Shown piece by piece: positions 1 to 22,442 of a stretch of DNA of 64,000 nt. Each line of letters begins with the position of its first letter. The stretch's first letter is position 1. The notes beneath the pieces are model-generated. The model searched no databases. It worked only from the letters and a program-made list of their open reading frames with translations, and was not told where the DNA came from. Origin of the DNA: an uncultured delta proteobacterium. Lineage in GTDB: Bacteria; Desulfobacterota; Binatia; UBA9968. The DNA is taken from NCBI GenBank assembly GCA_963745835.1, contig CAVUZH010000003.1, positions 224,001 to 288,000 of the forward strand, read 5' to 3'. A program made the translations under genes and the position numbers.

Positions 1-219
1 ATGTGGACGGCGCTGGCTCGCCTAGAGAATGCTTCACCGAGTAAAGAAAAAATTCGCTGGGTGCCTCTGATACTTGCGTTGGAATGGGCCGACGCTCATG
101 CGCAAGAGCCGAAGCCGCGTCCCGGACATGAGGTCTTGCGCGAGTTTTTTGATTGCCTTACGGGGAAAGGCGTTTCTCAGGAAAAGATCGACTCAGCAGG
201 TGAGACTAACTCTGCTTGA
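1..219 (+). CDS. C-terminal part (or small ORF) of a hypothetical protein upstream of tssE
   Basis: Open frame from the window edge to TGA at 217-219, co-oriented with the T6SS genes; no recognisable motif. Confidence 0.35.
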   Translation: MWTALARLENASPSKEKIRWVPLILALEWADAHAQEPKPRPGHEVLREFFDCLTGKGVSQEKIDSAGETNSA

Positions 220-331: not shown

Positions 332-824
332 ATGGCTAGAATTGATAGCGACGTGAACATCGTTCCGTCGATCCTCGACCGGCTGCTCGACGATGAACCG
401 GAAATCTCCACTGAGCCGGCTACGAGCCGAGTCAAGGGTTTTCGCTCCTTAGAACGATCCGTGGCTCGTGACCTCGAAGCGCTTCTCAACTCACGGCAGG
501 AAACCTTAAAGGAATTGCCCAGCGAGTTCAAAGAAGTAAACCGCTCGTTGCTGACGTACGGGCTGCCTGATTTCACCTCGTTCAGCTTACTAACCCAAGA
601 CGATCGGCTTCGGATCAGGCGATCAGTCGAAGACGCAATCAACACGTTTGAGCCGCGGCTGTTGCGGGTGCGCGTAGCGTCTGGAAGCGCCGCGGGAGCA
701 CGATCGCGGCCTGCGTTTTCGCATCGATGCCTTTTTGCGGGTAGATCCGTCGCCGGAACCTGTGACCTTCGATGCGGTGTTGCAGATGAACACTCAACAG
801 TACGTGATTCAGCGGGAGCAGTAA
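332..824 (+). CDS. tssE: T6SS baseplate subunit TssE (gp25-like), frameshifted near 680
   Basis: N-terminal PSILDRLLDDEP...RDLEALLNSR...YGLPDF...FEPRL. After a +1 shift at ~680 the frame reads LEAPREHDRGLRFRIDAFLRVDPSPEPVTFDAVLQ...EQ* with TAA at 822-824 overlapping the tssF ATG (TAATG). Confidence 0.9.
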
Positions 825-2644
825 TGGCTGACGATCTTATTACCTACTATGAGAGAGAGCTCAGCTTTCTTCGGCAAATGGGAGCCGAGTTCGCTGCCAA
901 ATACCCTAAGATCGCTGCCCGCTTACTCCTTGAAGCGGACGCGTCGGAAGATCCTCATGTTGAGCGCCTGATTCAGGCGTTTGCCTTTCTTGCCGCGCGC
1001 GTCCATCACAAGATCGACGATGACTTCCCAGAGGTGACTGAAGCTCTACTGAACGTGCTTTACCCTCATTATCTGGCGCCGATTCCCTCGATGTCGGTGG
1101 TCCAGTTTGTTCTTGATCCGGAGCAAGGAAAGCTTACGAGCGGATACGCGGTTGCGAAAGGCTCTACTCTTTACTCACATCCTGTCGATGGTGCGCCATG
1201 CAGGTTCCGCACCTGTTATCCCGTTACGTTGTGGCCGGTTCAGATCGAGACAGCGAGTCTCGAACCGGTAGACTCACGCTTGGGTGTTTTTCCGAGAGCG
1301 GCACTCGGATTAATACGGCTCGAGATCCGCTGCTTGAGCGGCATCAAGTTTGCCCAGCTAGAGCTTGACCGGCTTCGTTTTTTTCTGCACGGGGAAGGCG
1401 CGCTGACTTATGCGTTGTACGAACTGCTCTTTAACAACGTGATAGAAGTGCGCATCCCGTCCAGCAAACCCAACGAAAGCTCCAAGGATATTTCGCTGCC
1501 GGCCAGCAGCGTAGGTCCGGTCGGATTTGGCGCCGATGAAGGAATCCTGCCTTACGGTGCGCGATCGTTCCTGGGATACCGGCTGCTGCAAGAGTATTTC
1601 AGTTTCCCGGAAAAATTTTTATTTTTCGAGCTCACCGGACTCAATCGTGCGGCGCAGAGTCGACTTGACGATCGGATGGAAATTCGGATCTTGCTCAATC
1701 GAATGCCGCGCTTGGAGCAACCGGTTACACGAGATACATTTCGCTTGGGTTGCACGCCGATTGTGAACTTGTTTTCCCAAACCGCCGAGCCTATCCGCCT
1801 GAGCCACACAGGCACCGAGTACCAGGTGTTTCCCGATATTCGAAGACAAAATGCCACCGAGGTCTATTCCATTGACTCGGTGACCAGCGTTTCTCCCGGT
1901 TCCGATGAGGTGGTCGAATTCGAGCCCTTCTACTCCTTCAAGCATGGAGTTGAACGGGAGCACCAGCAGGCCTTCTGGTATGCCGCGCGCAAGCCGTCTC
2001 CGAAAAAAGGGGATAACGGCACCGACGTGCATCTGGCGTTCGTCAATCTTGATTTCCGGCCCACCCTTCCGGCCGTGGACACGTTGATCATTCACACCAC
2101 ATGCAGCAATCGGGATCTTCCGGGGAAGCTGCCGTTCGGGGGCGACCGCGGTGAGTTCGAGCTCGAGGGAGCGGCGCCGCTATCGCGCATTCGTTGTCTG
2201 CGCAAGCCGACCGAGACTCTGCGCGCGCCGTTACGCCGGGGGACCCAGTGGCGGATCATCTCGCATCTCGGCCTCAATTATCTTTCGCTCTGCGACGGAA
2301 GTCTCGAAGCGTTGAAAGAAATCCTAAAGATCTATGATTTCGCCGATTCATCGTCTGTACGACAGCAAATCAACGGCATTATGCTCTTGACCAGCAAACA
2401 AGTCGTCGGCCGACCGCGCTCGATGCCGTGGAATGGTTTCTGTCGCGGGCTGGAAGTAACGGTCGAGTTCGATGAAGAAAAATTTGTCGGCGGTGGAGTC
2501 TTTTTGTTTGCAGCCGTGTTGGAAAATTTTTTTGGCTTATACACTTCGCTAAATTCATTTACTCAGCTCGTTGCCAAATCTCGACAACGCGAGGAGCCCC
2601 TTAAGCGATGGCCACCGAGAGCCGGAGAGCAGATCCTTCTTTAG
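824..2644 (+). CDS. tssF: T6SS baseplate subunit TssF
   Basis: Starts MADDLITYYERELSFLRQMGAEFAAKYPKIAARL...DPHVERLIQAFAFL; LGCTPIVNLF; C-terminal YTSLNSFTQL...WPPRAGEQILL. Confidence 0.95.
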   Translation: MADDLITYYERELSFLRQMGAEFAAKYPKIAARLLLEADASEDPHVERLIQAFAFLAARVHHKIDDDFPEVTEALLNVLYPHYLAPIPSMSVVQFVLDPEQGKLTSGYAVAKGSTLYSHPVDGAPCRFRTCYPVTLWPVQIETASLEPVDSRLGVFPRAALGLIRLEIRCLSGIKFAQLELDRLRFFLHGEGALTYALYELLFNNVIEVRIPSSKPNESSKDISLPASSVGPVGFGADEGILPYGARSFLGYRLLQEYFSFPEKFLFFELTGLNRAAQSRLDDRMEIRILLNRMPRLEQPVTRDTFRLGCTPIVNLFSQTAEPIRLSHTGTEYQVFPDIRRQNATEVYSIDSVTSVSPGSDEVVEFEPFYSFKHGVEREHQQAFWYAARKPSPKKGDNGTDVHLAFVNLDFRPTLPAVDTLIIHTTCSNRDLPGKLPFGGDRGEFELEGAAPLSRIRCLRKPTETLRAPLRRGTQWRIISHLGLNYLSLCDGSLEALKEILKIYDFADSSSVRQQINGIMLLTSKQVVGRPRSMPWNGFCRGLEVTVEFDEEKFVGGGVFLFAAVLENFFGLYTSLNSFTQLVAKSRQREEPLKRWPPRAGEQILL

Positions 2645-3699
2645 AGCACGTACTGTTCGAAGAGGGATATCGGTTCGATTTTTTTCAGGCGGTGCGCGTC
2701 CTGGAGCGCCTCTATTCCGCGCGACTGCCTGTCGGACGCAGTTCCATACCTGCCAAGGAGGCGGTGCGCTTCCGGTCGCTTCTTTCTCTCAGCTTTCCCC
2801 CCAGCTCGATTTACGATGTTGCTTATCCCGACAACGGCGATAGTCCACCCGAGATGGTCGTGGCGTTTATGGGCTTGTTCGGTTTAGCGGGAGTGCTGCC
2901 GCGCCATTACACCGAGCTTCTGCTCGAGCGGGTGCGCCAGAAAGATTTCGCCCTGCGCGATTTTCTCGATCTCTTCAACCACCGGATGATCTCACTCTTT
3001 TATCGCGCCTGGGAGAAATATCGTTTTCCGGTGGCATACGAGCGTTCCCGTTTGTCCTCGGACGCTCATTATGATCCGTTCTCGTTTTCGCTATTCAATC
3101 TGATTGGAATGGGAACGGACGGGCTTCGAGGCAAGCTCAAATCCGGCGATGAACCTCTGCTGTATTACAGTGGCTTGATAGCCCAACAGCCGCGTTCGGC
3201 CTGCGCGCTCCAAGCTATGCTGGGTGACTATTTCAACGTGCCGCTGATCATCAAGCAATTTATCGGCGCTTGGCTCCGTGTTGATGATGAGAATCGCACC
3301 AGGCTTGGCCGTGGTGACTCCAATAACGAGCTTGGCACCACGACGATGCTCGGCTCTAAGTGCTGGGACCAACAAGCGGGCTTCACTTTAGCCGTCGGCC
3401 CGCTCAAGTTTCAGCAGTTTCGCGAATTTCTTCCTTGCGAGACTGGATTTAATTCATTGGTCGAACTGACTCGTTTTTTTGTCGGTTTAACGCTTGATTT
3501 TGATGTCCAATTGGTTTTACAAGCAGCTGAAGTACCGGGCTGTCGTTTGACCAGGCCAGGGCCGGAAGCGCTCCGACTCGGCTGGTCGAGCTGGCTAAAG
3601 ACAAAAGAGTTTTCTTGCGATGCCGCAGAGGCGGTTCTAGGACGCCATTTAACGCGCATGCAAAAATTATCTGGCCACCCTTCGCAGGCAACGCTATAG
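2608..3699 (+). CDS. tssG: T6SS baseplate subunit TssG
   Basis: FDFFQAVRVLE, SLSFPPS, FMGLFGLAGVLPRHYTE, DFLDLFNHRMISLFYRAWEKY, LGWSSWL motifs; follows tssF. Confidence 0.95.
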   Translation: MATESRRADPSLEHVLFEEGYRFDFFQAVRVLERLYSARLPVGRSSIPAKEAVRFRSLLSLSFPPSSIYDVAYPDNGDSPPEMVVAFMGLFGLAGVLPRHYTELLLERVRQKDFALRDFLDLFNHRMISLFYRAWEKYRFPVAYERSRLSSDAHYDPFSFSLFNLIGMGTDGLRGKLKSGDEPLLYYSGLIAQQPRSACALQAMLGDYFNVPLIIKQFIGAWLRVDDENRTRLGRGDSNNELGTTTMLGSKCWDQQAGFTLAVGPLKFQQFREFLPCETGFNSLVELTRFFVGLTLDFDVQLVLQAAEVPGCRLTRPGPEALRLGWSSWLKTKEFSCDAAEAVLGRHLTRMQKLSGHPSQATL

Positions 3700-3712: not shown

Positions 3713-6382
3713 ATGAACGTTAATCTCAAATCTCTTATCGGTAAATTAAACAATACAGGCCGCCAGGCGCTCGAAAGCGCCGCAGGTTTGTGCGTGACTC
3801 GTACTCATTATGATATTGACATCGAGCATCTGTTGCTCAAGCTCGTCGAAGCCGAGAATACCGACATCCAGAAAATCCTTCGACACTATGAAGTCGATCA
3901 AGCTAGGCTCACGCGCGATCTAACTCGCGCGCTCGACCGGTTGAAAACCGGCAACGCGCGCACACCGGCGTTCTCGCCGAGAATTCCCCGGCTCATCACC
4001 GAAGCGTGGAATCTAGCCTCGATCGATTTCGGCGCGGCTAAGGTTCGCTCAGGCCATCTGCTCCTGGCAATGCTCAGCGAAGAAAACCTGGGCCGGCTGA
4101 CGAGGGATGCATCGCCCGAGCTGCAAAAAGTTTCGGTTGAAGAACTGCACAAGCATTTCGCCGATCTCACGGCAGGAACTGCTGAGGATGAAATCACATC
4201 TCCGACAAGCCCGGAGACCGCCGAGCCGGGTATGGGCGGTCCGACGAAGACGCCTTCGCTCGATCAGTTCACTATCGATTTGACTGACCGAGCGCGCAAG
4301 GGTCAAATCGATCCGGTGCTAGGCCGCGACTTCGAGATCCGGCAGATGGTCGATATTCTTACTCGCCGGCGACAGAACAATCCGATCCTGACGGGCGAAG
4401 CCGGTGTGGGAAAGACCGCGGTTGTCGAGGGGCTGGCGCTGCGGATTGCCGCGGGTGATGTGCCGCCGCCGCTTAAAAACGTCGCTTTGAAGTCTCTCGA
4501 TCTGACTTTGTTGCAGGCAGGGGCGGGCGTAAAAGGAGAGTTCGAAAATCGCCTCAAATCGGTTATCGAGGAAGTCAAAGCATCGGGGCAACCGATCATT
4601 CTTTTTATCGATGAAGCGCATACGATGATCGGCGCCGGCGGACAAGCGGGCCAAGGCGATGCGGCTAATATCTTGAAGCCGGCTCTGGCGAGAGGCGAAC
4701 TGCGCACCATTGCGGCGACGACTTGGTCGGAATACAAAAAATATTTCGAGAAGGACGCTGCTTTAGCAAGACGATTTCAGGTCGTGAAAGTCGATGAGCC
4801 CACCGAGGAGCAGGCAGTGGCGATGCTGCGCGGCCTGATGAGCACCCTCGAAAGTCATCACAACGTTCGGATTCTCGACGAGGCGATGGATGCAGCCGTG
4901 CGACTATCGCATCGCTACATCACCGGCAGGCAGTTGCCCGACAAGGCGGTGAGTGTGCTCGATACCAGTTCGGCGCGAGTGGCCTTGGGCCAGATGACGA
5001 CACCGCCGGCACTTGAAGACTGTCATCGCCGCATGGCCCACCTTGACACCGAGATGGGAATCCTTGAACGGGAATCTCTCACCGGCGGAAGCATGAACGA
5101 GCGCATCGACGCTCTGACCAAGGAGAAGGCTCAGATCGAAAGTCGTTTAGCTGAGCTCAACAACCGCTGGAACGAGGAAAAAAAGCGCGTCGAAGAGTTG
5201 CGCGGGCTTAGGGGAAAACTCGAGGCCCATGCGGCGGCAAGCAAACAAGCGGGCAATGGCAAAACAGACGGAAAGCTGTCTCCTGAGGAAGTTAAGCAGG
5301 CGCAGGGTGAGATCGCGCGACTCAACGATGAGTTAAGCAAGATTCAAGGCGACAGCCCCCTCATGCAGGTTTGCGTCGATGCCCAGGCCGTTGCCGAAGT
5401 AGTCTCGGGTTGGACGGGAATTCCCGTCGGCAAAGTCATGAAAGACGAGATCCAGACAGTGCTATCGCTCAAAGACCGGTTGGAGGAGCGCATAATCGGC
5501 CAGTCCCATGCGCTCGAAGCGATCGCCCAGCGCATTCGCACGGCGCGCGCGAAACTGGAAGATCCACGGCGGCCCATCGGCGTATTCATGCTCGTTGGGC
5601 CCAGCGGTGTTGGCAAGACCGAAACCGCCCTGGCGTTGGCGGACACGTTGTTTGGCGGCGAGCGCAATGTGGTTGTCATCAACATGTCTGAATACCAAGA
5701 AGGCCACACGGTCTCAGGTCTGAAGGGCTCGCCGCCGGGATACGTCGGCTACGGCGAAGGCGGAGTGCTGACGGAGGCGGTCAGGCGAAAGCCTTACTCA
5801 GTCGTGCTGCTCGATGAGATGGAGAAGGCGCACACCGATGTCATGGAGCTTTTCTATCAGGTCTTTGACAAAGGCATGTTGGAGGACGGCGAAGGCAGGG
5901 AAATCGATTTCAAGAACACCTTGATTCTCATGACCTCCAATGCCGGCACCGAGACGATCGCGAAGCTCTGTGCCGACCCGGATACCAAACCGGAACCGGA
6001 CGCGCTCGCCGACGCTCTGCGTCCTGACCTGCTCAAAGTCTTCAAGCCGGCGTTCCTGGGGCGAGCGATCATCGTTCCTTATTATCCGATTGCCGACGAC
6101 ATCATGAAGAAGATCATCGAGCTGCAGCTCGGAAGAATTCAAAAGCGGCTTTTCGAAAATCATCGGGCACAGTTTTCCTACGATCCAACTTTGGTCGACG
6201 AGGTCGCGCGCCGCTGCACCGAGGTCGAGAGCGGCGCGCGCAATGTCGATCATATTCTCACGCGCACCTTGTTGCCGGAAATATCGAAAGAGTTTCTGGC
6301 GAAGATGGCCGCTGGTGAGGGAATCAGCAGGGTACACGTATCAGTTGGCGGTCAGGGCGGTTTTCAGTACCAGATTGCATGA
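3713..6382 (+). CDS. tssH: T6SS AAA+ ATPase TssH/ClpV
   Basis: Two Walker A motifs (GEAGVGKT, GPSGVGKT), RRRQNNPIL, ClpV-type N-terminus (LIGKLN...LCVTRTHYDIDIEH) and C-terminal ESGARNVDHIL. Confidence 0.96.
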   Translation: MNVNLKSLIGKLNNTGRQALESAAGLCVTRTHYDIDIEHLLLKLVEAENTDIQKILRHYEVDQARLTRDLTRALDRLKTGNARTPAFSPRIPRLITEAWNLASIDFGAAKVRSGHLLLAMLSEENLGRLTRDASPELQKVSVEELHKHFADLTAGTAEDEITSPTSPETAEPGMGGPTKTPSLDQFTIDLTDRARKGQIDPVLGRDFEIRQMVDILTRRRQNNPILTGEAGVGKTAVVEGLALRIAAGDVPPPLKNVALKSLDLTLLQAGAGVKGEFENRLKSVIEEVKASGQPIILFIDEAHTMIGAGGQAGQGDAANILKPALARGELRTIAATTWSEYKKYFEKDAALARRFQVVKVDEPTEEQAVAMLRGLMSTLESHHNVRILDEAMDAAVRLSHRYITGRQLPDKAVSVLDTSSARVALGQMTTPPALEDCHRRMAHLDTEMGILERESLTGGSMNERIDALTKEKAQIESRLAELNNRWNEEKKRVEELRGLRGKLEAHAAASKQAGNGKTDGKLSPEEVKQAQGEIARLNDELSKIQGDSPLMQVCVDAQAVAEVVSGWTGIPVGKVMKDEIQTVLSLKDRLEERIIGQSHALEAIAQRIRTARAKLEDPRRPIGVFMLVGPSGVGKTETALALADTLFGGERNVVVINMSEYQEGHTVSGLKGSPPGYVGYGEGGVLTEAVRRKPYSVVLLDEMEKAHTDVMELFYQVFDKGMLEDGEGREIDFKNTLILMTSNAGTETIAKLCADPDTKPEPDALADALRPDLLKVFKPAFLGRAIIVPYYPIADDIMKKIIELQLGRIQKRLFENHRAQFSYDPTLVDEVARRCTEVESGARNVDHILTRTLLPEISKEFLAKMAAGEGISRVHVSVGGQGGFQYQIA

Positions 6383-6447: not shown

Positions 6448-8613
6448 ATGAATTACACTCAACAAGATCGGGCGATGGCGGTTACTACTCCGCTGGGCGC
6501 GGATAAGCTGTTGCTGCTGTCGTTCACCGGTCAAGAGGCGATCTCTCGGCTGTTCGATTTTCAACTGGATCTCACGGCCGAAAATGAGGTCGACGTCGCT
6601 TTTGACAAACTCCTAGGCCAGAAGATTACCACCAGGCTTGATTTACCGGACGGCGAGAAGCGCTACTTCAGCGGCATCTGTAATCGTGTGAGCCAGGGCG
6701 AACGAGACGAGATTTTTACTCGATATCGAATGGAAGTCGTGCCTCAGTTCTGGCTGCTGACGAAAAGGGCGCAGAGCCGGATTTTCCAGCAGATGACCGT
6801 GCCGGACATTCTCAAAAAAGTATTAACCGGGCTCGATGTGACTTATGAGATCCAGGGCAGCTTTCATCCGCGCGATTTTTGCGTCCAGTACCGCGAGACC
6901 GACTTTAACTTCGCCAGCCGGCTGATGGAAGAAGAGGGGATCTTTTATTTCTTTAAGCACAATTCGGAAGGCCACCAGCTGGTGGTGGCGAACACGCCGC
7001 AGAGCCATCCCGACTTGCCAACCCAGAGCAAGATTATTTATGAAGAGGTCCAAGACGGCAATCGGGAAGAAGACCGAATTTATGACTGGGAAAAAGTGCA
7101 GGAGTGGCGCTCGGGAAAGTATGTCTTGTGGGATCATTGCTTCGAGCTGCCGCACAAACATCTGGAAGCCGAAGCCAATATTCTCGACGCTGTTCAGGTC
7201 GGAAAGGTTAGTCACAAGTTCAAAGTCGGTGGCAACGATAAGCTCGAGATCTACGATTATCCAGGCGAGTACGCCCAGCGCTTTGACGGCATCCAACCGG
7301 GCGGCGGCGATCGCGCCGGCGATTTGCAGAAGATTTTTCAAGATAACCGGCGGACTACAGACATCCGCATACAGGAAGAAGCCCTGCCCGGATTAACCAT
7401 CCAGGGCGGCAGCAATTGCCGGCAGTTTGTCAGCGGCTACAAGTTTACCCTGCAAAGGCATTTCAACGCCGACGGCGACTACGTGATCACAAACGTGACT
7501 CATTCGGCACGCCAGGCGGGCGACTATCGGTCGAACGGCGGCGATTTTCATTACAGTAACAGTTTTAGCTGCATACCGGCGGCGTTACCGTTCCGGCCGC
7601 AGCGATTGACTCCGAAACCGGTGGTGCAGGGAACTCAAACGGCGGTCGTCGTGGGTCCGGCGGGCGAAGAGATTTTCACCGATAAATACGGCCGGGTTAA
7701 AGTTCAGTTTCACTGGGACCGTCAAGGAAAGAATGACGCGAACAGTTCCTGCTGGGTGCGCGTGGGAACGCCGTTGGCGGGAAAGCAGTGGGGCATGGTC
7801 CACATCCCGCGCATCGAGCAGGAAGTCATCGTTGACTTTCTCGAAGGCGATCCCGATCAGCCGATCATCATCGGCAGCGTTTACAATGCGAAGGAGATGC
7901 CGCCGTACGCGCTGCCCGATAACAAGACCCAGACAGGGATCAAGAGCCGCAGCAGTCTCGGCGGAACACCCGACAATTTCAACGAGATCCGTTTCGAGGA
8001 CAAAAAAGGACAAGAGCAAGTCTATATCCACGCCGAAAAGAACGAAGACATCGTCGTCGAGAATGACAAGACGGAAAACGTCGGCCACGATGAAACGATC
8101 ACGATCAGTAATGATCGCACCGAAACCGTCATGGGCCACGAAACTTTGTCCGTGGCCAAAAACAGAACCCGCACGGTGAGTCAGAACGAGATTGTGACTG
8201 TGGCGTTAACGCGCACACACACGGTCGGCATCAATGAAATGATCAATATCGGCGCGGCGCAGGAAGTGACGGTAGGCGCAATGCGCGCCTTAACGGTTGG
8301 GATCAATCAGGCGACGACTATCGGCAAGAATCTAAGCGAGAATATTGGCAGTGACCAGAGTGTTGATGTCGGCAAAAACTTGACGGAAAAAATTGGGACT
8401 AACCAGACCACATCGGTCGGCAAGAACCTGACGATAACTGCCGGCGATCAGATTGTTATCAAAACCGGCCAGTCCAGCATCACGATGAAGAAGGATGGAA
8501 CGATTACGATTGCCGGCAAGGACATTACGGTTAACGCATCCGGCAAGATTTTTGAGAAAGCAACTGGCAACATCGTCTTAAAGGGTCAAAAAATTTTGGA
8601 GAACGTAAAATGA
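6448..8613 (+). CDS. vgrG: T6SS spike protein VgrG/TssI (no C-terminal effector extension)
   Basis: CVQYRETDFNFASRLMEEEGIFYFF, GTQTAVVVGP..EEIFTDKYGRVKVQFHWDR, FLEGDPDQPIIIGSVYN, NEIRFEDKKGQEQVYIHAEKN and 8-residue gp5-like beta-helix repeats. Confidence 0.96.
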   Translation: MNYTQQDRAMAVTTPLGADKLLLLSFTGQEAISRLFDFQLDLTAENEVDVAFDKLLGQKITTRLDLPDGEKRYFSGICNRVSQGERDEIFTRYRMEVVPQFWLLTKRAQSRIFQQMTVPDILKKVLTGLDVTYEIQGSFHPRDFCVQYRETDFNFASRLMEEEGIFYFFKHNSEGHQLVVANTPQSHPDLPTQSKIIYEEVQDGNREEDRIYDWEKVQEWRSGKYVLWDHCFELPHKHLEAEANILDAVQVGKVSHKFKVGGNDKLEIYDYPGEYAQRFDGIQPGGGDRAGDLQKIFQDNRRTTDIRIQEEALPGLTIQGGSNCRQFVSGYKFTLQRHFNADGDYVITNVTHSARQAGDYRSNGGDFHYSNSFSCIPAALPFRPQRLTPKPVVQGTQTAVVVGPAGEEIFTDKYGRVKVQFHWDRQGKNDANSSCWVRVGTPLAGKQWGMVHIPRIEQEVIVDFLEGDPDQPIIIGSVYNAKEMPPYALPDNKTQTGIKSRSSLGGTPDNFNEIRFEDKKGQEQVYIHAEKNEDIVVENDKTENVGHDETITISNDRTETVMGHETLSVAKNRTRTVSQNEIVTVALTRTHTVGINEMINIGAAQEVTVGAMRALTVGINQATTIGKNLSENIGSDQSVDVGKNLTEKIGTNQTTSVGKNLTITAGDQIVIKTGQSSITMKKDGTITIAGKDITVNASGKIFEKATGNIVLKGQKILENVK

Positions 8614-9149
8614 AGAACCGGGTCATTAGAAACGCTGTGTACAGCCAGAAGAACCGAATTGAGCCAATGGATCAAGCGAGAACGTCTACTCTTTTGGAAC
8701 TCATCACCGAAGGAAGATCGCCAATGCAAATCCAGTCGGCGGAGTTATTGTTGGAAAATTTGCGGGTTTCGACGCTGCGGGAGATCCGCTAGTCAATTTT
8801 GTCGCCGATATCGATCTGCAGAGATATCGTCGCACGTTCCATGATCGCGCTCAGAGAAGACCAAGTAGGATCTGACGTTGTTCTCGCTTTTGAACATGGC
8901 GACTTAGCAAAGCCCATTGTCACGGGTCCCTTTGGCAGCGCGAAGATCCTCGTTCGCAAAAACTAGTTGTGGCAGAAGCTCGACGGAGAGCGTATAACTC
9001 TAACCGCTCAGAAAGAAATAGTTCTCCGTTGCGGCAAGGCGAGTATCACGCTGACTCAAGCAGGCAAAGTTCTCATTCGAGGAGCTTATCTTTCCAGTCA
9101 TTCATCAGGTGTGAACAGGATCAAAGGCGGTTCTGTCCAAATCAACTAG
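8610..9149 (+). CDS. DUF6484-family T6SS accessory protein, split by several frameshifts
   Basis: Reading across frames gives GVIVGKFAGFDAAGDPLVNF...IALREDQVGSDVVLAFEHGDLAKPIVTG...DGERITLTAQKEIVLRCGKASITLTQAGKVLIRGAYLSSHSSGVNRIKGGSVQIN*. Confidence 0.8.
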
Positions 9150-9258
9150 CTGAGACGCTTGACGTTTTATTGCAGTCAAGCGCAGAAAACGCAAATCGTC
9201 GGCAGAGCCGGACCACCCATGACGGCGATAGATCCGCTTCTCAGTTGCACTTGCACCG

Positions 9259-10532
9259 ATGAGCTTTACTGAGAGTGAGACTTCTACTGTTATCAAGGCG
9301 ATAATTGAGCAGCACGCGGACGAGGCCGCTTTTCTGTGGACCGTGCGAGATCGAGCTGTGCTTTCATCCAGCTACTCTCTTAAAGATACTTTCAGCCTTA
9401 GATGAACGAGTTGAAGCACATCTCGATGGCCTGCGTGTCGCCGGTCCGTTTGGCTGGGAGGCCTGTGAACAGGCTTTGGATCAAGCGGAACCTGGATGTG
9501 TGTTCCCGGCTACGGTGCTGGCGTTTGATAGTGGCGATGCTGAACGGATTCGCCGAGTTTTGCAAATAGCTTGTTTGTCGCCCGAGTTGCAGCGGGGACT
9601 CATTTCGGGTCTTGGATGGTTACCTTTTAGCAAGATCGAGGCAGACCTAAACGATATCCTTGTTTCTGAACTTCCGGAGATGCGCTGTATAGCCATTGCA
9701 GCTTTTGCTGCGCACCGTCGGGATCCTGGTGAGCCGTTAATGCAAGCACTATCTGATCCGAATGCTCGATTGCGGGCACGAGCACTCAAAGCTTGCGGAG
9801 AACTAGGGAAGGCGGATTTCTTGCCTCTGATTTTGAAGTCCATTTCAGATCAAGACGAGAGTGCCGTTTTTTTGCGGCCTGGTCTGCAGCTCGCCTTGGA
9901 GATCGATCGCAGCAAGTTGCTCAGACACTGAAAGAGATCGCATTTGGCGACGAGTGAGTATGCGGAACGGGCGTTAGACATTGCTCTGAGGATTATGAAT
10001 TTTCAAGACGCAAAAAGCTGGTATCAACACCTCAAGAGAGAACCTGCTCAACTCCGTACAGCAATAGATGCAGCCGGAATTATCGGAGTCCCAGAATTCG
10101 TAACAGACTTGATTGATTTCATGAAGCATCCAGCCGATTGCGCGGCTTGCCGGGCAATCGTTCTCGATGATTACGGGGGTGAATCTCGCCTACGAGAATC
10201 TGAGCGGAGATAAGCCAGAGGATTTTGACGCTGGACCAACAGAAGATCCCGAAGATGAAAATGTGGCAATGGATCCGGATGAGAATTTACCGTGGCCTGA
10301 CGCGGCGTTAGTGACAAAGTGGTGGAATCAGCATCGGCCGAAGTTCCAAGCTGGCAGACGATATCTCAGAGGCAAGGAAATCGCCACTCAATCACTTCGC
10401 GAGGTCTTGATCGAAGGAAATCAGCGCGAGCGTGCCGTGGCAGTTTTGGAGTTAGCTGTTAAAAAGCCGGCAGAGCGTTTGTTCGAAGTCCGGGCTCGGG
10501 CAGCATTCCAATTCGAGGCATTGAGGCTCTAG
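9259..10532 (+). CDS. TIGR02270-family HEAT-repeat T6SS accessory protein, frameshifted (about 3 breaks)
   Basis: IIEQHADEAAFLW..RDRA...LDERVEAHLDGLRVAG; ITGVNL; DDENV-like EDENVAMDPDENLPWPD...WW...GRRYLRG...GNQRER spread over ORFs 9305-9931, 9944-10213 and 10167-10532. Confidence 0.85.
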
Positions 10533-10585
10533 AACTTTTGGACGAGTGAAGAAGAACATTACTTGCTAAATCGGCTTAGCATAGG

Positions 10586-11974
10586 ATGGCGTGCATGAAT
10601 CATATCAAGCCGTATGACGAGCTGCCTTACAAATGCCTTCCGATCGAATGGACGGCGCCCGAGCGACTTGCGCTCGCTTCCATTCTGCATGGAGGCCCGC
10701 GACCCTCGCTCGACACATACAGAGTGCTTGAGCTTGGATGTGGAAATGGAGCGAATCTATTGCCGCTGGCGTATTATCGGAGGCACGCAACTTTTGTCGG
10801 TCTAGACGGCGCTCTTACCCAGATTGAAATCGCCGATGCTCGCAAATCAGCACTGGAGTTATCCAACATCGAATTTATTCACTCGAATTTCTTTACAGCA
10901 GCCCAGAGACTCTGGGGTCAGTTCGACTTCATTATCGCTCACGGCATCTTTTCATGGGTAACCAACGACGTCCGTGATGCTCTGCTAGAGCTCTGCGCAC
11001 AACACCTTCGCCCCGGTGGTCTGCTCTACCTGAATTATAATACAAGACCGGGCTGGAACGTGCGTGGCATGGTAAGGGAGTTTCTTCTCGCGCAGACAGC
11101 CGGGACGACAAGCCTCCAAATGCGAGCTCAGGCCGCCCAGGATGTTGCAGCCAAAATCGTTTCGTCCCTGACGATAGCTGAACATCCTTACTCGCAACTG
11201 ATGGCTAACGAGTTTCGATTTGTTTGTGAGAATCATGTGTCCTATGTCGCGCACGAATACCTCGCGTCCGAAAACCATCCCTATTGGAGAAGCAAATTCC
11301 TGGGATTGGCGCGAGCCTATGGACTTGAGTATGTGACCGACGCAGACTTCTGTTATAGCTCGGGGCGACTTCCTGAAGACTTGGTATCACGACTCAGTGA
11401 AGAGCAGATTGCAGGACGTACGCTCGATGATACCGTGGACCTGCTGTGCTATCGACAACTGCACTCTCCAATCCTGACGCATAGCCCATTGACATTGCGA
11501 CCTCCGAGCATCGAGGAGTTCGCGAACCTAATCGTCGCTTCGTGTCTCGTACCCTGTGCCTCGAACAATACTGAGAACCCAATGTTCCAACATCCGTCCG
11601 GCTATCAGGTTGAAGCAAAGACGGTAGATATGGCGACTGCACTCAGCGGGTTACAGTCGCTGTGGCCACGAGGCCTCCGTATAGGTACTTTATTCCCAGA
11701 TGTGAGGGGGATCATCGATGATCTGAAGCTTCTACAGCGGAACGGACTCATCGAACTGCGTTGCATTGAGCCCGGCGAGTTTAGTGTCGGTCGGACGCCG
11801 CTAAACAGATTGGAGAGCCGGTGGGGCGATTATGTTACGTCTCCCATATCACACACCGGAAGCTGTCCCGAAGCGAGTTTGGAAGCCGATCCTGTTGATA
11901 TGAACGCTAACTCGCAAGTCAGGTCTCTGGAGCGGACAGCGCAACAATCTCTTGTCTCTTCATGTCGCCGCTAA
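10586..11974 (+). CDS. Class I SAM-dependent methyltransferase with regulatory domain (MethyTransf_Reg / rickettsial PKMT-like)
   Basis: YDELPY..PERL, VLELGCGNGANLLP (motif I), FDFIIAHGIFSWV, LRPGGLLYLNYNTRPGW, YVAHEYLASENHP. Confidence 0.85.
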   Translation: MACMNHIKPYDELPYKCLPIEWTAPERLALASILHGGPRPSLDTYRVLELGCGNGANLLPLAYYRRHATFVGLDGALTQIEIADARKSALELSNIEFIHSNFFTAAQRLWGQFDFIIAHGIFSWVTNDVRDALLELCAQHLRPGGLLYLNYNTRPGWNVRGMVREFLLAQTAGTTSLQMRAQAAQDVAAKIVSSLTIAEHPYSQLMANEFRFVCENHVSYVAHEYLASENHPYWRSKFLGLARAYGLEYVTDADFCYSSGRLPEDLVSRLSEEQIAGRTLDDTVDLLCYRQLHSPILTHSPLTLRPPSIEEFANLIVASCLVPCASNNTENPMFQHPSGYQVEAKTVDMATALSGLQSLWPRGLRIGTLFPDVRGIIDDLKLLQRNGLIELRCIEPGEFSVGRTPLNRLESRWGDYVTSPISHTGSCPEASLEADPVDMNANSQVRSLERTAQQSLVSSCRR

Positions 11975-11985
11975 GGTAAAGAAGA

Positions 11986-13012
11986 ATGTGGGCCGTAACA
12001 AATCGTACTCCTTATAAAGTTGGGCGTGTTTGGGGGCGTGACAAGGACGGTGTCCACGAGTGGATTGTGGCCGTCAAGGGCACTTTCGACATCAAGCCTG
12101 ATGGCAGTCTCAGGCTTGCCGATGAGCAACTCGAACCATTGCTGCTGCCGGAGTATAACGGCGAGCCAGGTGTATCGAGCCTGCGCTACGACGCTGATCT
12201 TGTTGCACCAAAGCCCACAACGGATGTGGTGGTCAATGGCACGGCATATGCGCCAAAAGGACACCCGAGCACAGACTTTCTCGTTTCGGTTCGCGTAGCT
12301 CGGATCCAAAAGACGATTCGAGTCAGAGGTCACAGCGAGGATGGAAGCGGGGGCTGTTCGGTCTCGAACCATCGGCTCGGAACCGATCACTAAACTTCCG
12401 ATCATCTATGAGCGCGCTTACGGTGGATACGATCAAACGGATCCTGATCCGAAAAAGCAACGCATAGATTTGCGAAATCCGGTGGGCTGCGGCGTAGTCG
12501 GCGAAATCAAAAAATCGAATTGGTCAGCATTACCCAATTTCGAATACCCCAAAGGAAAGCTAGAAAAGGCCGGCCCTGCCGGCTTTGGCGCCATCGACAG
12601 CTATTGGTCGCCGCGACACGAACTGCAGGGCACATACGACAAAGCTTGGCAGAAGGATCGTTACCCACTTTTGCCTAATGATTGGGATCCACATTCCCTG
12701 TTGTGTTCGCCCCCAGACCAGCGCCCCAAAAAACACCTGCATGGCGGCGAACTCGTCGAACTAGAGAATCTGACACCGAACGGCAAGCTCCGCTTTACCC
12801 TGCCGACGGCTTACCTACGTTTCCTGACGCACATCGACAATCGCACTGAAGAACACGAGCGTCGGCTGGCCACGGTGATCATCGAGCCCGATTATCCACG
12901 CCTGATCATGGTGTGGCAGTCCGTGCTGGCGGTTCGTAATGACGGCGATTATCTCGATGAGACCGTCGTGACTGAGAACGAATATTTCGGAAGGCTGGCA
13001 TCGAATGGCTAG
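11986..13012 (+). CDS. DUF2169-family T6SS adaptor/chaperone, frameshifted near 12335-12380
   Basis: NRTPY..WIVAVKGTF..SSLRYDADLVAPKPTTDVVVNGTAYAP, then PIIYERAYGG..NPVGCG..PAGFGAI..WSPR..GTYD..W...SPPDQ..GGELVELENL. Confidence 0.9.
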
Positions 13013-14073
13013 TTCGATTCAGATCGTCGGAATTGGCGCGCGGACGCCCCTCGGTGATGCGGCCACCGCCGCGGCCGCCGTTCGAGCAGGACTGACGGGG
13101 CTCGGCCAGCATCCCTTCATGTTGGATCGCGACGCCGTTCCTATCCCCGGCCGCCCTCGTCGCGGAGCTCGATCTGACCGACATGGGTCCCAAGCGCCTG
13201 CTCGCATTGGCCGAACCCGCGCTGCGCGACGCTTGCGCGTCGCTCGACTCCGGCAGGTCGGTTCGACAGCGGTTGCCTGTTTTCCTGGGACTGCCGGCGC
13301 TCCGGCCCGGATTCACCGAAAAGTATGCCGAGGCCGTGCGAACCGGATTGGCTCGACTGGACGGGCTCCCGGCGGACCTCGCTGAAATCACGGTTTTCTC
13401 CCATGGGCACGCGGCGGGAGTATCGGCCTTGGCGGCAGGGTTCGAGCATCTCCACAACTCCACGTTCGAGGTGTGCCTCGTCGGAGGTGTGGACAGCTAT
13501 TTCCACGCCGACACGGTGGACTGGCTCCTCGCGAATCGCCAACTGGCCGGCGCGGTCTCGCGTTCCGGTTTTGTGCCAGGTGAAGGAGCGGCGTTTTGTT
13601 TGCTGGCCACCGACAAAGGTCTCAACCGTCTTGGTCTGAAGCCCATGGCGCGCGTGCGTGCGGTGGCCGTCGGTAAAGAAACGAAGTTGATCAAGACAAC
13701 GGACCTGTGCCTCGGCGAAGGTCTAAGCGCAACCGTGAGAGACGCGGTGAGTGGTCTGCGACTTCCCGATGAAAGGATCAACGAAATCTATTGCGACATC
13801 AACGGCGAACGCTACCGCAGCGAAGAGTGGGGATTTGTCTGCCTGCGCTTGGCACAGTACTTCGACGATGCGACAACGTATCATTCGCCGGCCGAATGCT
13901 TGGGCGATATGGGCGCCGCCTCGGGACCGTTCTTTGCGATCCTGGCATGCCAGGCCTTTGCGCGCCGTTACTCCAGAGGACCGCGCGTCATGTTGTGGGC
14001 GAGTTCGGAAGGTGGCCAACGAGGTGTCGCGGTGTTAGAGGATTCGACGGCGGGACTGAAAGAAAGGAATTAA
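13005..14073 (+). CDS. Thiolase/beta-ketoacyl-synthase-fold T6SS accessory protein (PRK06147-like), frameshifted near 13150
   Basis: IVGIGARTPLG..AAAVRAGL; CLVGGVDSY; GFVPGEGAAF; GEGLS; DINGERYRSEEWG; PAECLGDMGAASG. Confidence 0.85.
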
Positions 14074-14074
14074 G

Positions 14075-14898
14075 GTGCCAAGTGTAGCCATCCATCCGCC
14101 GAAGACGCCGGTCCATAAAGGCAGCCACACGATCGCAAAAGCCACCATTCCAAACATCTGCAAGATGCCGGGGCCGCCGGCGCCGTTCGTGCCCGCCCCG
14201 CTGCCGAACATCGCCAAGTCGGAACTCTCGCCGAAAGATTACTCGACGACGGTCAAGATCGAAGGCAATACGGTCGCGATCAGAGGTTCGACGTTTGAAA
14301 GCATCGGCGATATGGCCAGCAAAGGCACCGGGGGTGGCTTGATCTCGGCCAATTTCACGGACCGGCCAAGTTCATCGCCCCCGGTTCGATGACCGTCAAG
14401 ATCGAGGGGAAGAACGTCCATTTGCTTGGCGACTCGATGCTCAACAATCTGGGGCCGAGCGGCAGCCCGCCGAACACGGGCGCGACCATGATGGGTGCGG
14501 ATCATGCGGACCTGTCGATGGAATCGAGGTGCAAGAAGGCACGCGAAAGAAGCGGAAGACTGGCGAATGAATTCAGGCACGGCCTGGACCAGCCGATGAG
14601 AAGCCGGCAATCGTGCAGTGCTGTCGATACGAATGGCAGATTGAGTACAGGGGTGAGAGGTTCCAGCTACCTCTGGTGAGTGACCTCGCAAAACAGTTTC
14701 CGTCTCCGCATAACCACAAATGTGCTGAATTGACGGCCATTTCCAGAATATCAGCATGCATGGACTGGAGACGGTGCGGGATGCGTTATCACAACAGTCA
14801 ATGTGCGAAGACCAGGTCATGAAGATCACAACACAAAGGAACCGGCCTGCCCGGGGTGCAAACCGCTGCTGGAGGCCTTAGGCATCATCAGATGTTGA
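14075..14898 (+). CDS. DUF4150 (PAAR-like) spike-tip protein fused to a C-terminal YwqJ-like deaminase toxin; multiple frameshifts
   Basis: PNICKMPGPPAPFVPAPLPNIAKS..TVKIEG..GDMASKGTGGGLIS..GSMTVKIEGKNVHLLGD.MLNN. C-terminus reconstructed as ..PSPHNHKCAELTAISR..ITTVNVRRPGHEDHNTKEPACPGCKPLLEALGIIRC* (CAE at 14721, CPGC at 14848). Confidence 0.75.
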
Positions 14899-14914
14899 GG
14901 CCCGGAGAGCTCAG

Positions 14915-15407
14915 ATGGATATTTGGAAGGACTTGACGACCAGAGAAATGCAGGCTTATGGAGCCTTATGTCTGCATCGCTTTTGCAAAGCCACAGGATC
15001 AACATCGATCCATTGATGAACTGATCGACCATCTTCTCTCAATGCTGGTCTCCTATCCCTTGGACAAGTGGGAACGCCGAGGAGCGCGCCTGCACTTGAA
15101 CAGGTAGAGGCTGGGATCCGCTTCCGGCATCTCTGAACGACCAGCTTCCCGAAGAACTTCGGAAAGACTTCGCCCGGTTCGTCGAAGACGTTGTGGATAT
15201 CGGCTTCTGCGATATGTATGGGGCCCCCACGACCAAATCGCTGAAGTATTTATAAAAAGCTTGACGTTTCTGGACGAACACGGGATTGAGCGTCCAGACG
15301 TGGCCGAACTCTTTAAGAATCGCACCCCGAGAGGGGGGACCGCTCCGGACTTGGGAGAAGTATTCTCTCAGGAACGATACGAGCAGGTGAGAGCGTTGTT
15401 CCGATAA
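14915..15407 (+). CDS. Putative cognate immunity protein (~165 aa), frameshifted
   Basis: GGAGAG RBS then ATG 14915. Across frames: MDIWKDLTTREMQAYGALCLHRFC..SIDELIDHLLSML..WERRG..GRGWDPLP..DFARFVEDVVDIGFCDMYGA..FLDEHGIERP..YEQVRALFR*. Directly behind the toxin domain. Confidence 0.6.
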
Positions 15408-15512
15408 CGTGACCTGGCACGTCGATCCAATAGGCTGCCCCACACATGTTGTCGATCTATGGAATGCCTGTCCGGTGTGACTTGTCTCGTTGCGGAGGCG
15501 AACCGATAGACC

Positions 15513-15831
15513 GTGCGTGCCAACCCATACGACGAGCTACCCTACAAATCGCTCCCCATCGAATGGACCGCACCCGAACGCCTTGCGGTGGCTTCGCTCC
15601 TTCATGGGGGTCCCCGAGCGCCGGTGGAGACCTATCGGGTTCTGGATCTGGGCTGCGGCAACGGTGCGAACGTCGTACGGCTAGCGTACTATCGGAGACA
15701 GGCCGCCTTTGTGGGTTGACGGTGCAGCGAGCCAGATCGAACTCGCGAACTTTTGGAAGTCGGCTCTGGACCTCTCCAACATCGAGTTCATCCACACGGA
15801 TTTCCGCACTTGCCCAACTCGTCTGGGGTCA
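15513..15831 (+). pseudogene. 5' fragment of a second PKMT-like methyltransferase paralogue, truncated by the transposase element
   Basis: NPYDELPYKSLPIEWTAPERLAVASLLHGGPR..YRVLDLGCGNGAN..AYYRRQAAFVG..QIE..SALDLSNIEFIH closely parallels the N-terminus of 10586..11974; similarity stops at ~15831. Confidence 0.85.
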
Positions 15832-16117
15832 AATCTTTATCTATAATTTTAGACTCGACTAATCTTCTCATTTCGTGTTAAGAGTTGATCATGGCCCGGC
15901 CCTTGAGAATCTTTTATCCCAATGCGGTTTATCATGTTACCTGTCGAGGTAACGATAGAAAGAATATCTTCGAGACGATAGGGATCGGCGAGTGTTCCTG
16001 AAACACCTCCAGAATTCAAGAGAGATCTACGGCGTCAAGGTTCAAGCCTACGTGTTGATGAGCAATCATTTCCACTTGATCCTGGAGACGCCGAAGGCCA
16101 ATCTTTCCGAGTTTATG
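15825..16117 (+). mobile_element. Truncated 5' copy of a Y1/HUH (RAYT-like) transposase element
   Basis: Begins GGGGTCAAATCTTT; ATG 15891 MARPLRIFYPNAVYHVTCRGN.. and, after a shift, ..AYVLMSNHFHLILETPKANLSEFM; ends abruptly. Confidence 0.85.
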
Positions 16118-16133
16118 TGCTTCTGGGCAATCA

Positions 16134-17186
16134 GGGTCAAATCTTTACATATGATTTAGCTAGACTGATTCTTTCGTGGGCTTGCTATGGGTTGGTCATG
16201 GCACGGCCCTTAAGAATTCTTTATCCCAATGCTTTTTATCACGTTACCTGTCGAGGGAACGATAGAAAGAAGATTTTCGAGACGATCGCGACCGGCGAGC
16301 GTTCCTAGAAAAGCTAAATACCTCAAGGGAAATCTATGGCGTTAATGTTCAAGCATACGTGCTGATGAGCAATCATTTCCATTTAATTGTAGAGACGCCC
16401 AAGGCCAACCTCTCCGACTTCATGAGGCATTTTAATATTGCATATACCGGCGCCTATAATCGCCGACACAAGAGAGTAGGACATCTATATCAAGGGAGAT
16501 ACAAAGCCATATTGGTGGATAAAGACAGCTACCTGTTGGAATTGAGCCGCTATCTTCATTTGAATCCAGTTAGAATCAAAAGCTCTCGAGAGCGCAGCTA
16601 TCAGGAGCAGATCAAAACCCTGGAAGGATACACCTGGAGTAGTTTAGGCGGTTATATAGACACCAAGAAGAAGGTTCCTTGGATCACTTATGATCAAGTG
16701 CTAAATCAGGTCGGCGGTTCCCGAACCAAATACAAGGAGTTTGTCAAAGAGGGCATGAAAAGTGGCTATCGGACACCATGGGACAAAGTGGAGGGGCAGA
16801 TGGTTTTGGGAGATAAGAGATTCTTACAGAAGCTCAAGGGCAAATGGGAGAAAGCGGCATCGCGACGCGAGCAGCCATCGGCGAGAGCGTTCTCCGCAGT
16901 TGACTCTGAAGCGGTGATACGAGCGGCAAGTGCATATTTCAAGATCGGGCGAGAGGAACTGAGCAAGAAACGAACTCGTTATCGAGACGAGCGCAGCGTT
17001 GTGATGAATTTGATGTATCGCCTAAGCGCGATTAGTCAGGCGGAGATTGGACGGACACTAGGAGGTCTAGACTACACCGCTGTGAGTCGGGAACGCAAAA
17101 GACTGCGAGATAAAATAGCGGTCGATCAGAAGCTCAGACGAGCGATGGAAAATTTGGAAACTAAATTAGGCACCTAACATTTGACC
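16134..17186 (+). mobile_element. RAYT-like Y1 tyrosine transposase element (CDS 16198..17177, one frameshift near 16278) with C-terminal DnaA-C-like HTH
   Basis: MARPLRI..YHVTCRGN; HUH motif LMSNHFHL; GHLYQGRYKA; RYLHLNPV; YTWSS; C-terminal SQAEIGRTLGGLDYTAVS. Bounded by GGGTCAAAT (16134) and inverted ATTTGACC (17179-17186). Confidence 0.9.
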
Positions 17187-22128: not shown

Positions 22129-22442
22129 ACTTCACACGCTTCCTGAGCTTCGCATTGGCACAGCCTGTGAATCAATAAATTCTTTCCCCCGAAAAGATGG
22201 TTGTTTAGGACATCTAGCTGACTATGATTGGTTTCGTCCTATCTGTGACTTGTAGGGCGTTGGCTATATCACTGATATCACAATCTGGTTGGAGCTCTGA
22301 ACTTGCTCGGCTTGATGAAATCAGCACGATAATTGCGTAGCAAACTCCTATGTATGTTGATGTAGCTTTTGCATTTAGTTGGTACACGGCTTCCGCGCAT
22401 GGGCGCATGCTAGCTGGTTACGATTGCTGCAGGAATGGACTT

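Follow-up and report, generated by a model that had tools for sequence, protein, structure and literature searches.

Within the 64,000-nucleotide stretch of DNA analyzed here (the window; positions 224,001 to 288,000 of the forward strand of contig CAVUZH010000003.1, assembly GCA_963745835.1, from an uncultured delta proteobacterium of the Binatia), a type VI secretion system (T6SS) locus carries a spike-loading cassette with an unusual component: an intact gene for a 462-amino-acid methyltransferase (MTase) dependent on S-adenosylmethionine (SAM, AdoMet). The enzyme resembles the rickettsial protein lysine methyltransferases PKMT1 and PKMT2 and groups with a shortened lineage, called clade A in the following. 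The comparison of related loci indicates that the clade A MTase is regularly present in T6SS spike-loading cassettes of one type, an association that has so far gone undescribed. For the complete reading, a PKMT of a cassette-bound, shortened lineage that modifies a T6SS component expelled from the cell, we see even chances, the synteny included. The expelled component as the target of methylation is proposed by analogy, and on this part taken alone our confidence stays a little below even.

Results and Discussion

The cassette enzyme is a shortened member of the PKMT family

In line with the original prediction, which had been made from the sequence without database searches, the MTase gene is co-oriented and tightly packed between a TIGR02270 gene and a DUF2169 adaptor gene: the open reading frame (ORF) is intact, starts 53 bp past the last TIGR02270 piece (end 10532) and ends 11 bp before DUF2169 (start 11986). 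Pfam matched residues 45-156 to Methyltransf_25/12/31/11/23 (E 5e-15 to 6e-10) and residues 219-297 to PF10119 MethyTransf_Reg (E 1.6e-7, 32.5 bits at a cut-off of 25.5). A profile of 40 homologues retrieved PKMT1 (5dnk, E 2.4e-65, positions 3-312) and PKMT2 (5doo, E 2.4e-51), and the next solved structure followed with E 4e-8. An AlphaFold (AF2) model (pLDDT 84.2, pTM 0.84, residues 430-462 with low confidence) again placed PKMT1/2 on the top ranks of a Foldseek search, with TMq 0.72-0.74, about 450 aligned columns and a structural identity of 21-24%; the next fold match was Rv2067c of M. tuberculosis (8hkr, titled histone H3K79 methyltransferase) with TMq 0.54-0.55. The assignment to the MethyTransf_Reg/PKMT-like family by the original prediction is thus borne out by the PF10119 match and by PKMT1/2 as best solved relatives, and the motifs quoted there (YDELPY..PERL, FDFIIAHG..SWV, YNTRPGW and HEYL) are present in the translation and conserved in the 40 homologues.

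As judged from the alignment, the SAM-binding site of the MTase is intact. Motif I reads VLELGCGNGAN, with G51, C52 and G55 invariant in 40 sequences. According to the main text of PMC11784438, Asp102 and His146 of RpPKMT1 are AdoMet hydrogen-bond residues; they correspond to D74 (invariant, 40/40) and H119 (>=90%) of the MTase, with an inferred offset of 1 between the PDB-chain and the paper numbering of RpPKMT1. The MTase therefore shares with the OmpB lysine methyltransferases PKMT1/PKMT2 of Rickettsia (PDB 5dnk, 5do0, 5doo, 5dpl) the class I SAM domain, PF10119 and the AdoMet-contacting Asp and His, whereas it is about 90 residues shorter and lacks a detectable C-terminal winged helix (PF21782, PKMT_2nd; none at E <=0.01 in the MTase and none at E <=0.001 in the homologues from loci L008, L009 and L016). 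The winged helix was found in 6/6 homologues tested from T6SS core clusters, in the PKMT of genome G046 and partly in that of genome G1102. Relatives of the MTase are numerous (more than 2000 in the database), and among the best 120 clusters the identity ranges over 63-96% and the length over 424-504 amino acids; for clade A itself, lengths of about 425-470 amino acids and no detectable winged helix seem to be characteristic. Sequence and model together describe the MTase as a shortened PKMT-family member with substrate-facing residues of its own. A small-molecule role in concert with the neighboring PRK06147-like synthase was considered and rejected, as the MTase is PKMT-like over its full length.

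Clade A is found with the spike-loading cassette

Loci with relatives of the MTase came from a metagenome scan, of which 80 loci were kept, and from a single-protein genome scan with 2 loci (L denotes a scanned locus, G a genome and X a public sequencing run; G000 is the own genome and C3 its contig). Eleven loci with an MTase at least 48% identical to the window enzyme were taken as clade A. Using tblastn and Pfam, cassette genes, i.e. DUF6484, TIGR02270, DUF2169, a PRK06147-like beta-ketoacyl-synthase-like gene (KAS) or a PAAR-like gene, were detected next to the MTase in seven of them (L001, L008, L009, L010, L011, L012 and L016), with one weak 34-amino-acid match as the evidence in L010. 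The contigs of the remaining four (L013, L014, L015 and L017) stop inside the MTase gene or <=400 nt after it. Close homologues are therefore located in the cassette in 7/7 readable loci. A location mostly outside T6SS loci, which the original prediction had named as speaking against it, is not what was observed.

The order of the cassette genes is cyclically permuted among the loci:

Window: TIGR02270 - MTase - DUF2169 - KAS - PAAR - (immunity) - MTase remnant
L009: MTase - DUF2169 - KAS - PAAR - immunity - immunity - TIGR02270
L008: DUF2169 - KAS - PAAR - immunity - orf - TIGR02270 - MTase

In L001, L008 and L011, as in the window, the MTase directly follows TIGR02270. It lies 11 bp from DUF2169 in the window and 6 bp from it in L011, and in L009 the ends of the two genes overlap. 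Recombination among tandem effector modules would leave such a permuted order and would also explain a second MTase copy behind the immunity genes. Identity to the window varies from gene to gene: in L008 it amounts to 72% for the MTase, 45-51% for DUF2169 and 42% for KAS, and in L009 to 69%, 70-79% and 62%, respectively, while the toxin part diverges among the loci past the PAAR-like domain.

Additional evidence comes from genome G1102 with the order ClpV-VgrG-DUF6484-DUF2169-KAS-PAAR toxin-orf-PKMT-TIGR02270. This PKMT has 553 amino acids and is the sister to clade A with a Shimodaira-Hasegawa-like support of 98 (trees were calculated with FastTree; a second tree was built without the long-branch rows L063_6303, L087_609 and L028_2330 and with L088 relabelled as cassette). 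As a full-length sister resides in the same cassette, the link to the cassette would predate the shortening of clade A. Furthermore, for 30 of the 119 top MTase clusters the longest contig has the same size as that of one of the 120 top relatives of the L009 DUF2169 protein, an indirect proxy for co-location for which near-miss counts give about 1 match by chance.

PKMT relatives in T6SS core clusters

More distant relatives, roughly 30% identical to the MTase, are accompanied by T6SS core genes in 20/70 metagenome loci. A FastTree phylogeny was calculated for 99 full-length proteins. Of the 46 rows in one of its clades, 23 are core-cluster rows, 15 have flanks too short to be judged and eight have long flanks without T6SS; there are no core-cluster rows in the other clades. 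The "core" label requires 14 changes on the tree, compared with a mean of 23.2 after shuffling and 0/500 shuffles as low, in a comparison where kin share labels. The PKMT family as a whole is not T6SS-specific; certain lineages are.

In detail, a canonical PKMT is located between hcp and tssE in the own genome, G001, G005 and G022, and between tssE and tssF in G490. The order in G046 is VgrG-kinase-DUF2169-orf-DUF2169-orf-PKMT, and the loci L056:3262-7067 and L083:7527-11617 contain VgrG-DUF4123-three small ORFs-canonical PKMT, i.e. an adaptor family other than that of the window. The canonical PKMT of the own genome is a third paralogue (29% identical; G000:C3:~221800-223378, about 0.6-2.2 kb upstream of the window), whose relatives carry PF21782. 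It is followed by a 183-amino-acid CxxCxxCC (PF03692) protein, a layout that is kept in G001, G005 and G022; window positions 1-25 also belong to this region.

Beside the PKMT, several T6SS core clusters encode another methyltransferase of a different kind (PF05175 MTS + DUF7059):

L036:8250-9815, - strand, PF05175 MTS + DUF7059 gene
L078:7632-9239, + strand, PF05175 MTS + DUF7059 gene
L096:10857-13277, - strand, PF05175 MTS + DUF7059 gene

In G022 this methyltransferase is fused to a CxxCxxCC domain. The arrangement of the MTS methyltransferase beside the PKMT suggests a two-enzyme modification module. A further gene, L043:7391-8350, encodes a GNAT acetyltransferase with a fused eCIS_core domain near VgrG and PKMT in a metagenome T6SS locus and would be another modifying enzyme in a T6SS setting.

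Layout of the locus in the window

The features of the T6SS region and its downstream border, all on the + strand, are:

332..2644, +, tssE-tssF as a single 770-amino-acid ORF (Pfam GPW_gp25 and T6SS_TssF)
2608..3699, +, tssG (PF06996, E 2.7e-108)
3713..6382, +, clpV/tssH (AAA_2, AAA_lid_9, ClpB_D2-small, Clp_N)
6448..8613, +, vgrG, intact, 721 amino acids (Phage_GPD, Gp5_trimer_C, Phage_base_V)
8610..9149, +, DUF6484 gene, one frame, with TAG in frame at 8790-8792 and 8964-8966 (PF20093, E 6e-11, middle piece)
9259..10532, +, TIGR02270 HEAT-repeat gene, in pieces (NCBIfam TIGR02270, 3 pieces: E 2e-33, 7e-7 and 1.5e-40)
10586..11974, +, PKMT-type SAM-dependent protein methyltransferase, 462 amino acids, intact, clade A (ORF, Pfam, profile, fold)
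11986..13012, +, DUF2169 adaptor gene with frame shifts near 12339 and near 12375 (PF09937, E 1.5e-27 and 1.4e-48 for both pieces)
13005..14073, +, PRK06147-like beta-ketoacyl-synthase-like gene with a frame shift near 13147 (NF004798, E 1.7e-50)
14075..14822 (end approximate), +, PAAR-like N-domain (PF13665, formerly DUF4150) and fragmented candidate toxin part, with a frame shift near 14352 (Pfam)
14823..15512, +, shattered stretch at the expected immunity-gene position, no intact ORF (three-frame translation)
15513..15825, +, 5' remnant of a second, diverged MTase gene, about 105 codons, with a frame shift at 15716 (homology, self-blastn)
15826..17177, +, Y1 (IS200-like/REP-associated) transposase-like gene with a DnaA_C-type helix-turn-helix (Pfam Y1_Tnp, Bac_DnaA_C; NF047646)

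All genes of the predicted cassette downstream of the intact VgrG (DUF6484, TIGR02270, DUF2169, PRK06147-like and PAAR-like) were detected. TIGR02270 is interrupted by frame shifts near 9387 and near 10135 and by a TGA in frame at 9929-9931, and the intact L009 DUF6484 protein, used as tblastn query, covers 8826-9146. The toxin-immunity pair that had been predicted could not be confirmed as intact: there is no ORF of more than about 130 codons in any + frame between 14400 and 15500, and Pfam gave no family matches for 15039-15443 (-) or 14613-14822.

The second paralogue that had been proposed at 15513 is indeed a diverged homologous copy, but only as a frameshifted remnant and not as a gene. 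It shares 77%/56-62% amino acid and 70.6% nucleotide identity with the first copy, and at this nucleotide identity it is old and diverged and not a fresh duplication. The remnant ends exactly at 15826, the start of a partial Y1-transposase-like repeat; by self-blastn, this partial tandem copy in front of the transposase-like gene (15826-16117) is about 80% identical to 16134-16424. Another partial relative of the transposase-like gene is present elsewhere in the own genome (C20).

At the other end of the region, tssE and tssF are two overlapping genes in different frames in the relatives G001, G022 and L034, and an extra base at window position 679 relative to G001 fuses them in the own sequence, so this fusion is probably an assembly artefact. 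Some more genes of the window are worth listing for completeness. Away from the T6SS region, an Amidohydro_3 gene is broken into two ORFs (37182-38847, - strand; profile positions 1-176 and 320-472). At 22350-24035 (+ strand), a Ser/Thr kinase ORF ends at profile position 194/263, is followed by a Big_2 ORF and is possibly another broken gene; a CsgG-like lipoprotein with SH3 domains is encoded nearby (25051-26127, - strand).

A possible role in the modification of expelled T6SS components

According to the main text of PMC11784438 and to PMC8232902, PKMTs with known targets (OmpB, AtaA) place methyl groups on many lysines of exported proteins that are long and rich in beta structure, and they follow no sequence motif in doing so. 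In detail, more than 130 lysines of AtaA, a trimeric fibre, are methylated by KmtA (PMC11784438), and PKMTs were reported to modify OmpB as well as other outer membrane proteins (PMC8232902). By analogy, the MTase would act before loading or firing and methylate the lysines of a protein that is then expelled together with the spike. Candidate targets would be the beta-helix of VgrG, its DUF6484 extension and the PAAR-like toxin, and also the tube. As the core machine, and not a given adaptor, is common to all T6SS-linked PKMT lineages, an expelled component is favored as target. On this view the MTase would contribute a modification that the T6SS can do without, and would not belong to its structure. 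A complex prediction of the MTase with DUF2169 (both from L009, each with alignment) resulted in ipSAE values of 0.00 and 0.00, which, obtained without controls, were counted neither way.

If the other lineages are included, an unrecognised post-translational layer of the T6SS comes into view, in which PKMT-type enzymes would have been recruited several times and would each methylate many lysines of a spike, tube or toxin that is expelled; we regard this extension as possible rather than probable. The recruited forms would be the shortened clade in DUF2169/PRK06147/TIGR02270 cassettes, canonical enzymes in core clusters and canonical enzymes after DUF2169 or DUF4123. If true, methylation could make the proteins resistant to proteolysis or to ubiquitylation inside the recipient, or it could tune loading.

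A number of observations weigh against an expelled T6SS component as substrate of a cassette-bound enzyme. The assignment of the substrate is an analogy throughout, and the positions of the MTase (after TIGR02270, before DUF2169, or after DUF4123 for the canonical form) are equally compatible with a cargo effector. Leu103 and Ile130 of RpPKMT1, mutation of which alters the Km for OmpB (main text of PMC11784438), are Gly75 and Phe102 in the MTase, so substrate recognition differs from that of PKMT1. In the tree of 99 proteins, the eight long-flank rows without T6SS lie within the very clade that holds the core-cluster rows. Around family matches in genomes, T6SS genes were found in 5/31 loci and none within about 9 kb in 26/31, where the "no T6SS" labels are of lower confidence because tblastn with proteins of the own genome can miss divergent T6SS genes. 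Moreover, all these counts overstate independence, since the clade loci are kin, the metagenome contigs are short and lineages may be represented repeatedly.

The same holds for the reverse question of how often the cassette carries the enzyme. Among 401 genomes sampled from the own phylum, 27 contain DUF2169 and nine a PKMT-like gene (E <=1e-30), and the two are adjacent in 2/27 DUF2169-bearing genomes, namely G000 and G046. Most related cassettes thus lack the gene, which the original prediction had itself named as a point against it, and its term "methylation-dependent T6SS" turned out to be too strong. Clade A was detected in 1/401 genomes of the own phylum and in 1/401 of the phylum of G440, clade-A-like scores occurred in 2/301 genomes of the order of G440, and none of 40 relatives of the own genome has clade A (0/40). 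From this distribution, the MTase is an optional, patchily distributed accessory of a cassette sub-lineage and not a requirement.

Assembly error or decay of the cassette

The state of the cassette in the window is a further point against the favored reading. With intact homologues from L008 and L009 as rulers for mapping the frame breaks, every cassette gene except the MTase is interrupted as assembled, with at least 10 breaks in 8610-15825. The whole cassette might therefore be a decaying pseudogene array, with the MTase as last survivor or already functionless and no present-day function of the finding here, and we take this as a serious explanation for the own locus, although not as the more probable one. 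It is in line with three of the breaks being nonsense codons (two TAG in DUF6484 and one TGA in TIGR02270), which indel errors alone could not produce, with the second MTase copy cut by the transposase-like element, and with at least two frame shifts in the upstream canonical PKMT in comparison with its 96%-identical orthologue in G001.

However, contigs from other samples read differently. Cover was available from four public soil or rhizosphere runs of three studies, in the form of short contigs with 2-4x depth that are 90-99% identical to parts of the stretch; each of these runs holds <=17% of the stretch's words, no RNA data set was listed as matching it, and the in-frame stops and 4/7 of the homology-mapped frame changes are without cover. 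At 3/3 covered frameshift sites, a 1-nt indel restores the frame:

Site 9387, TIGR02270, X2 contig one base shorter
Site 13144, PRK06147-like, X2 and X7 contigs one base shorter
Site 14352/14354, PAAR-like, X5 and X2 contigs one base longer

Furthermore, in C3:221216-224679 the own contig has about 11 inserted single bases that neither G001 nor G005 shows, among them the base that fuses tssE to tssF, a pattern typical of consensus errors, and the own assembly consists of 25 contigs with 9.3% contamination. The breaks seem to be either assembly errors or strain-specific decay, and of the two, consensus error in a strain-variable region is more likely than true decay. For this reason we gave no weight to the MTase as the only intact gene, and the idea that it alone had been kept intact by selection was dropped, as the breaks are probably not biological. 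A genome-wide statistic of ORF cover for local gene decay showed no discrimination. Whatever the state of the own cassette, intact cassettes with the MTase are found elsewhere (L008, L009, L119).

Alternative functions of the MTase

Turning to function, the MTase itself could be the cargo, loaded on VgrG via TIGR02270, DUF2169 or DUF4123 and methylating proteins of a bacterial or eukaryotic recipient. The position resembles that of an effector next to its adaptor, directly after TIGR02270 in the window and three further loci (L001, L008, L011) and downstream of DUF4123 in L056 and L083. Rv2067c, the first fold match behind PKMT1/2, is titled a histone methyltransferase and is a secreted protein. 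A review table also lists the SET-domain methyltransferase BtSET under T6SS (PMC12914800). Nevertheless, we judge cargo to be unlikely. The search for fusions among longer proteins, which is weak evidence, gave none to PAAR, VgrG or Rhs and a TPR/glycosyltransferase fusion as the sole match, and no candidate immunity gene is paired with the MTase. In addition, the MTase family is far more conserved (63-96% in 120 clusters) than the adjacent toxins, and in four related genomes the canonical clade sits between hcp and tssE within the conserved core, a place of accessory type and not of effector type.

Less probable still is an internal regulator that methylates an adaptor or a core part (DUF2169, PRK06147-like, TIGR02270, sheath or baseplate) to control assembly. 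The phosphorylation switch of PpkA, PppA and Fha follows a comparable regulatory logic, and upstream of the window this T6SS locus has ORFs whose translations read as a putative Ser/Thr kinase, a putative PP2C phosphatase and a putative FHA protein. The tight spacing to DUF2169 in the window, L009 and L011 and the varied positions of canonical PKMTs in core clusters would also fit. On the other hand, the identity of the MTase does not track that of DUF2169 and KAS (72% against 45-51%/42% in L008, and 69% against 70-79%/62% in L009), and the PKMTs with known target act on exported fibrous proteins and not on cytoplasmic regulators, according to PMC8232902 and the main text of PMC11784438.

Finally, an unrelated passenger inserted by chance is very improbable: the gene is absent from most sampled DUF2169 cassettes and close relatives of the own genome have no clade A, but the synteny in 7/7 readable loci plus G1102, despite permuted order and 50-72% identity, and the 30 same-size contigs against about 1 by chance speak against it, so that the original prediction was right to doubt a passenger, although its argument from two paralogues rests on a truncated remnant.

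Relation to known systems and significance

Cassettes of the type found in the window are usually read as VgrG, adaptors, toxin and immunity protein. One close counterpart is the VgrG1b-Tse7 cluster of P. aeruginosa. There, VgrG is followed by a small protein with an OB fold, a HEAT protein of the TIGR02270 type, a protein resembling beta-ketoacyl synthases, a PAAR-like toxin and an immunity protein, and to our knowledge the cluster contains no methyltransferase. Tse7 is described as a PAAR-like DNase in PMC10215855, and Re87 of Rhizobium etli as a small fragment of an unrelated O-methyltransferase homologue. Adaptor-marked DUF2169/PRK06147 cassettes with VgrG, DUF2169, PRK06147-like and PAAR-like toxin genes as in the window are the subject of PMC7714669; there, PRK06147 is named as a candidate adaptor, 74.4% of its homologues adjoin DUF2169 and some are fused to TIGR02270, and the word "methyltransferase" does not occur in the main text.

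On the side of the enzyme, KmtA of Acinetobacter sp. Tol 5 (main text of PMC11784438) is likewise a PKMT-family enzyme of an environmental bacterium, likened here by description. Its target is an exported fibre that is trimeric and rich in beta structure, and the methylated lysines show no consensus motif; it serves here as the functional model for a trimeric VgrG spike. In contrast to the T6SS cassette of the window MTase, the target of KmtA is a trimeric autotransporter adhesin, and the rickettsial PKMTs belong to an outer-membrane autotransporter system; neither "type VI" nor "T6SS" occurs in the main text of PMC11784438. Within the searchable full texts, i.e. subscription journals and supplementary tables aside, a PKMT-type or other lysine methyltransferase is undescribed as part of a T6SS cassette or cluster, which agrees with the original prediction that no T6SS component of this type had been described.

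A protein-modifying enzyme is thus absent from the picture of the T6SS spike cassette in the searchable literature. The MTase that travels with one cassette, together with its relatives in core clusters, leads to the testable hypothesis that secreted parts of the T6SS are methylated like OmpB and AtaA. If true, this would add a third kind of target for the large and mostly orphan PKMT family, and the "hypothetical" genes of effector cassettes may not all encode adaptors, toxins or immunity proteins.

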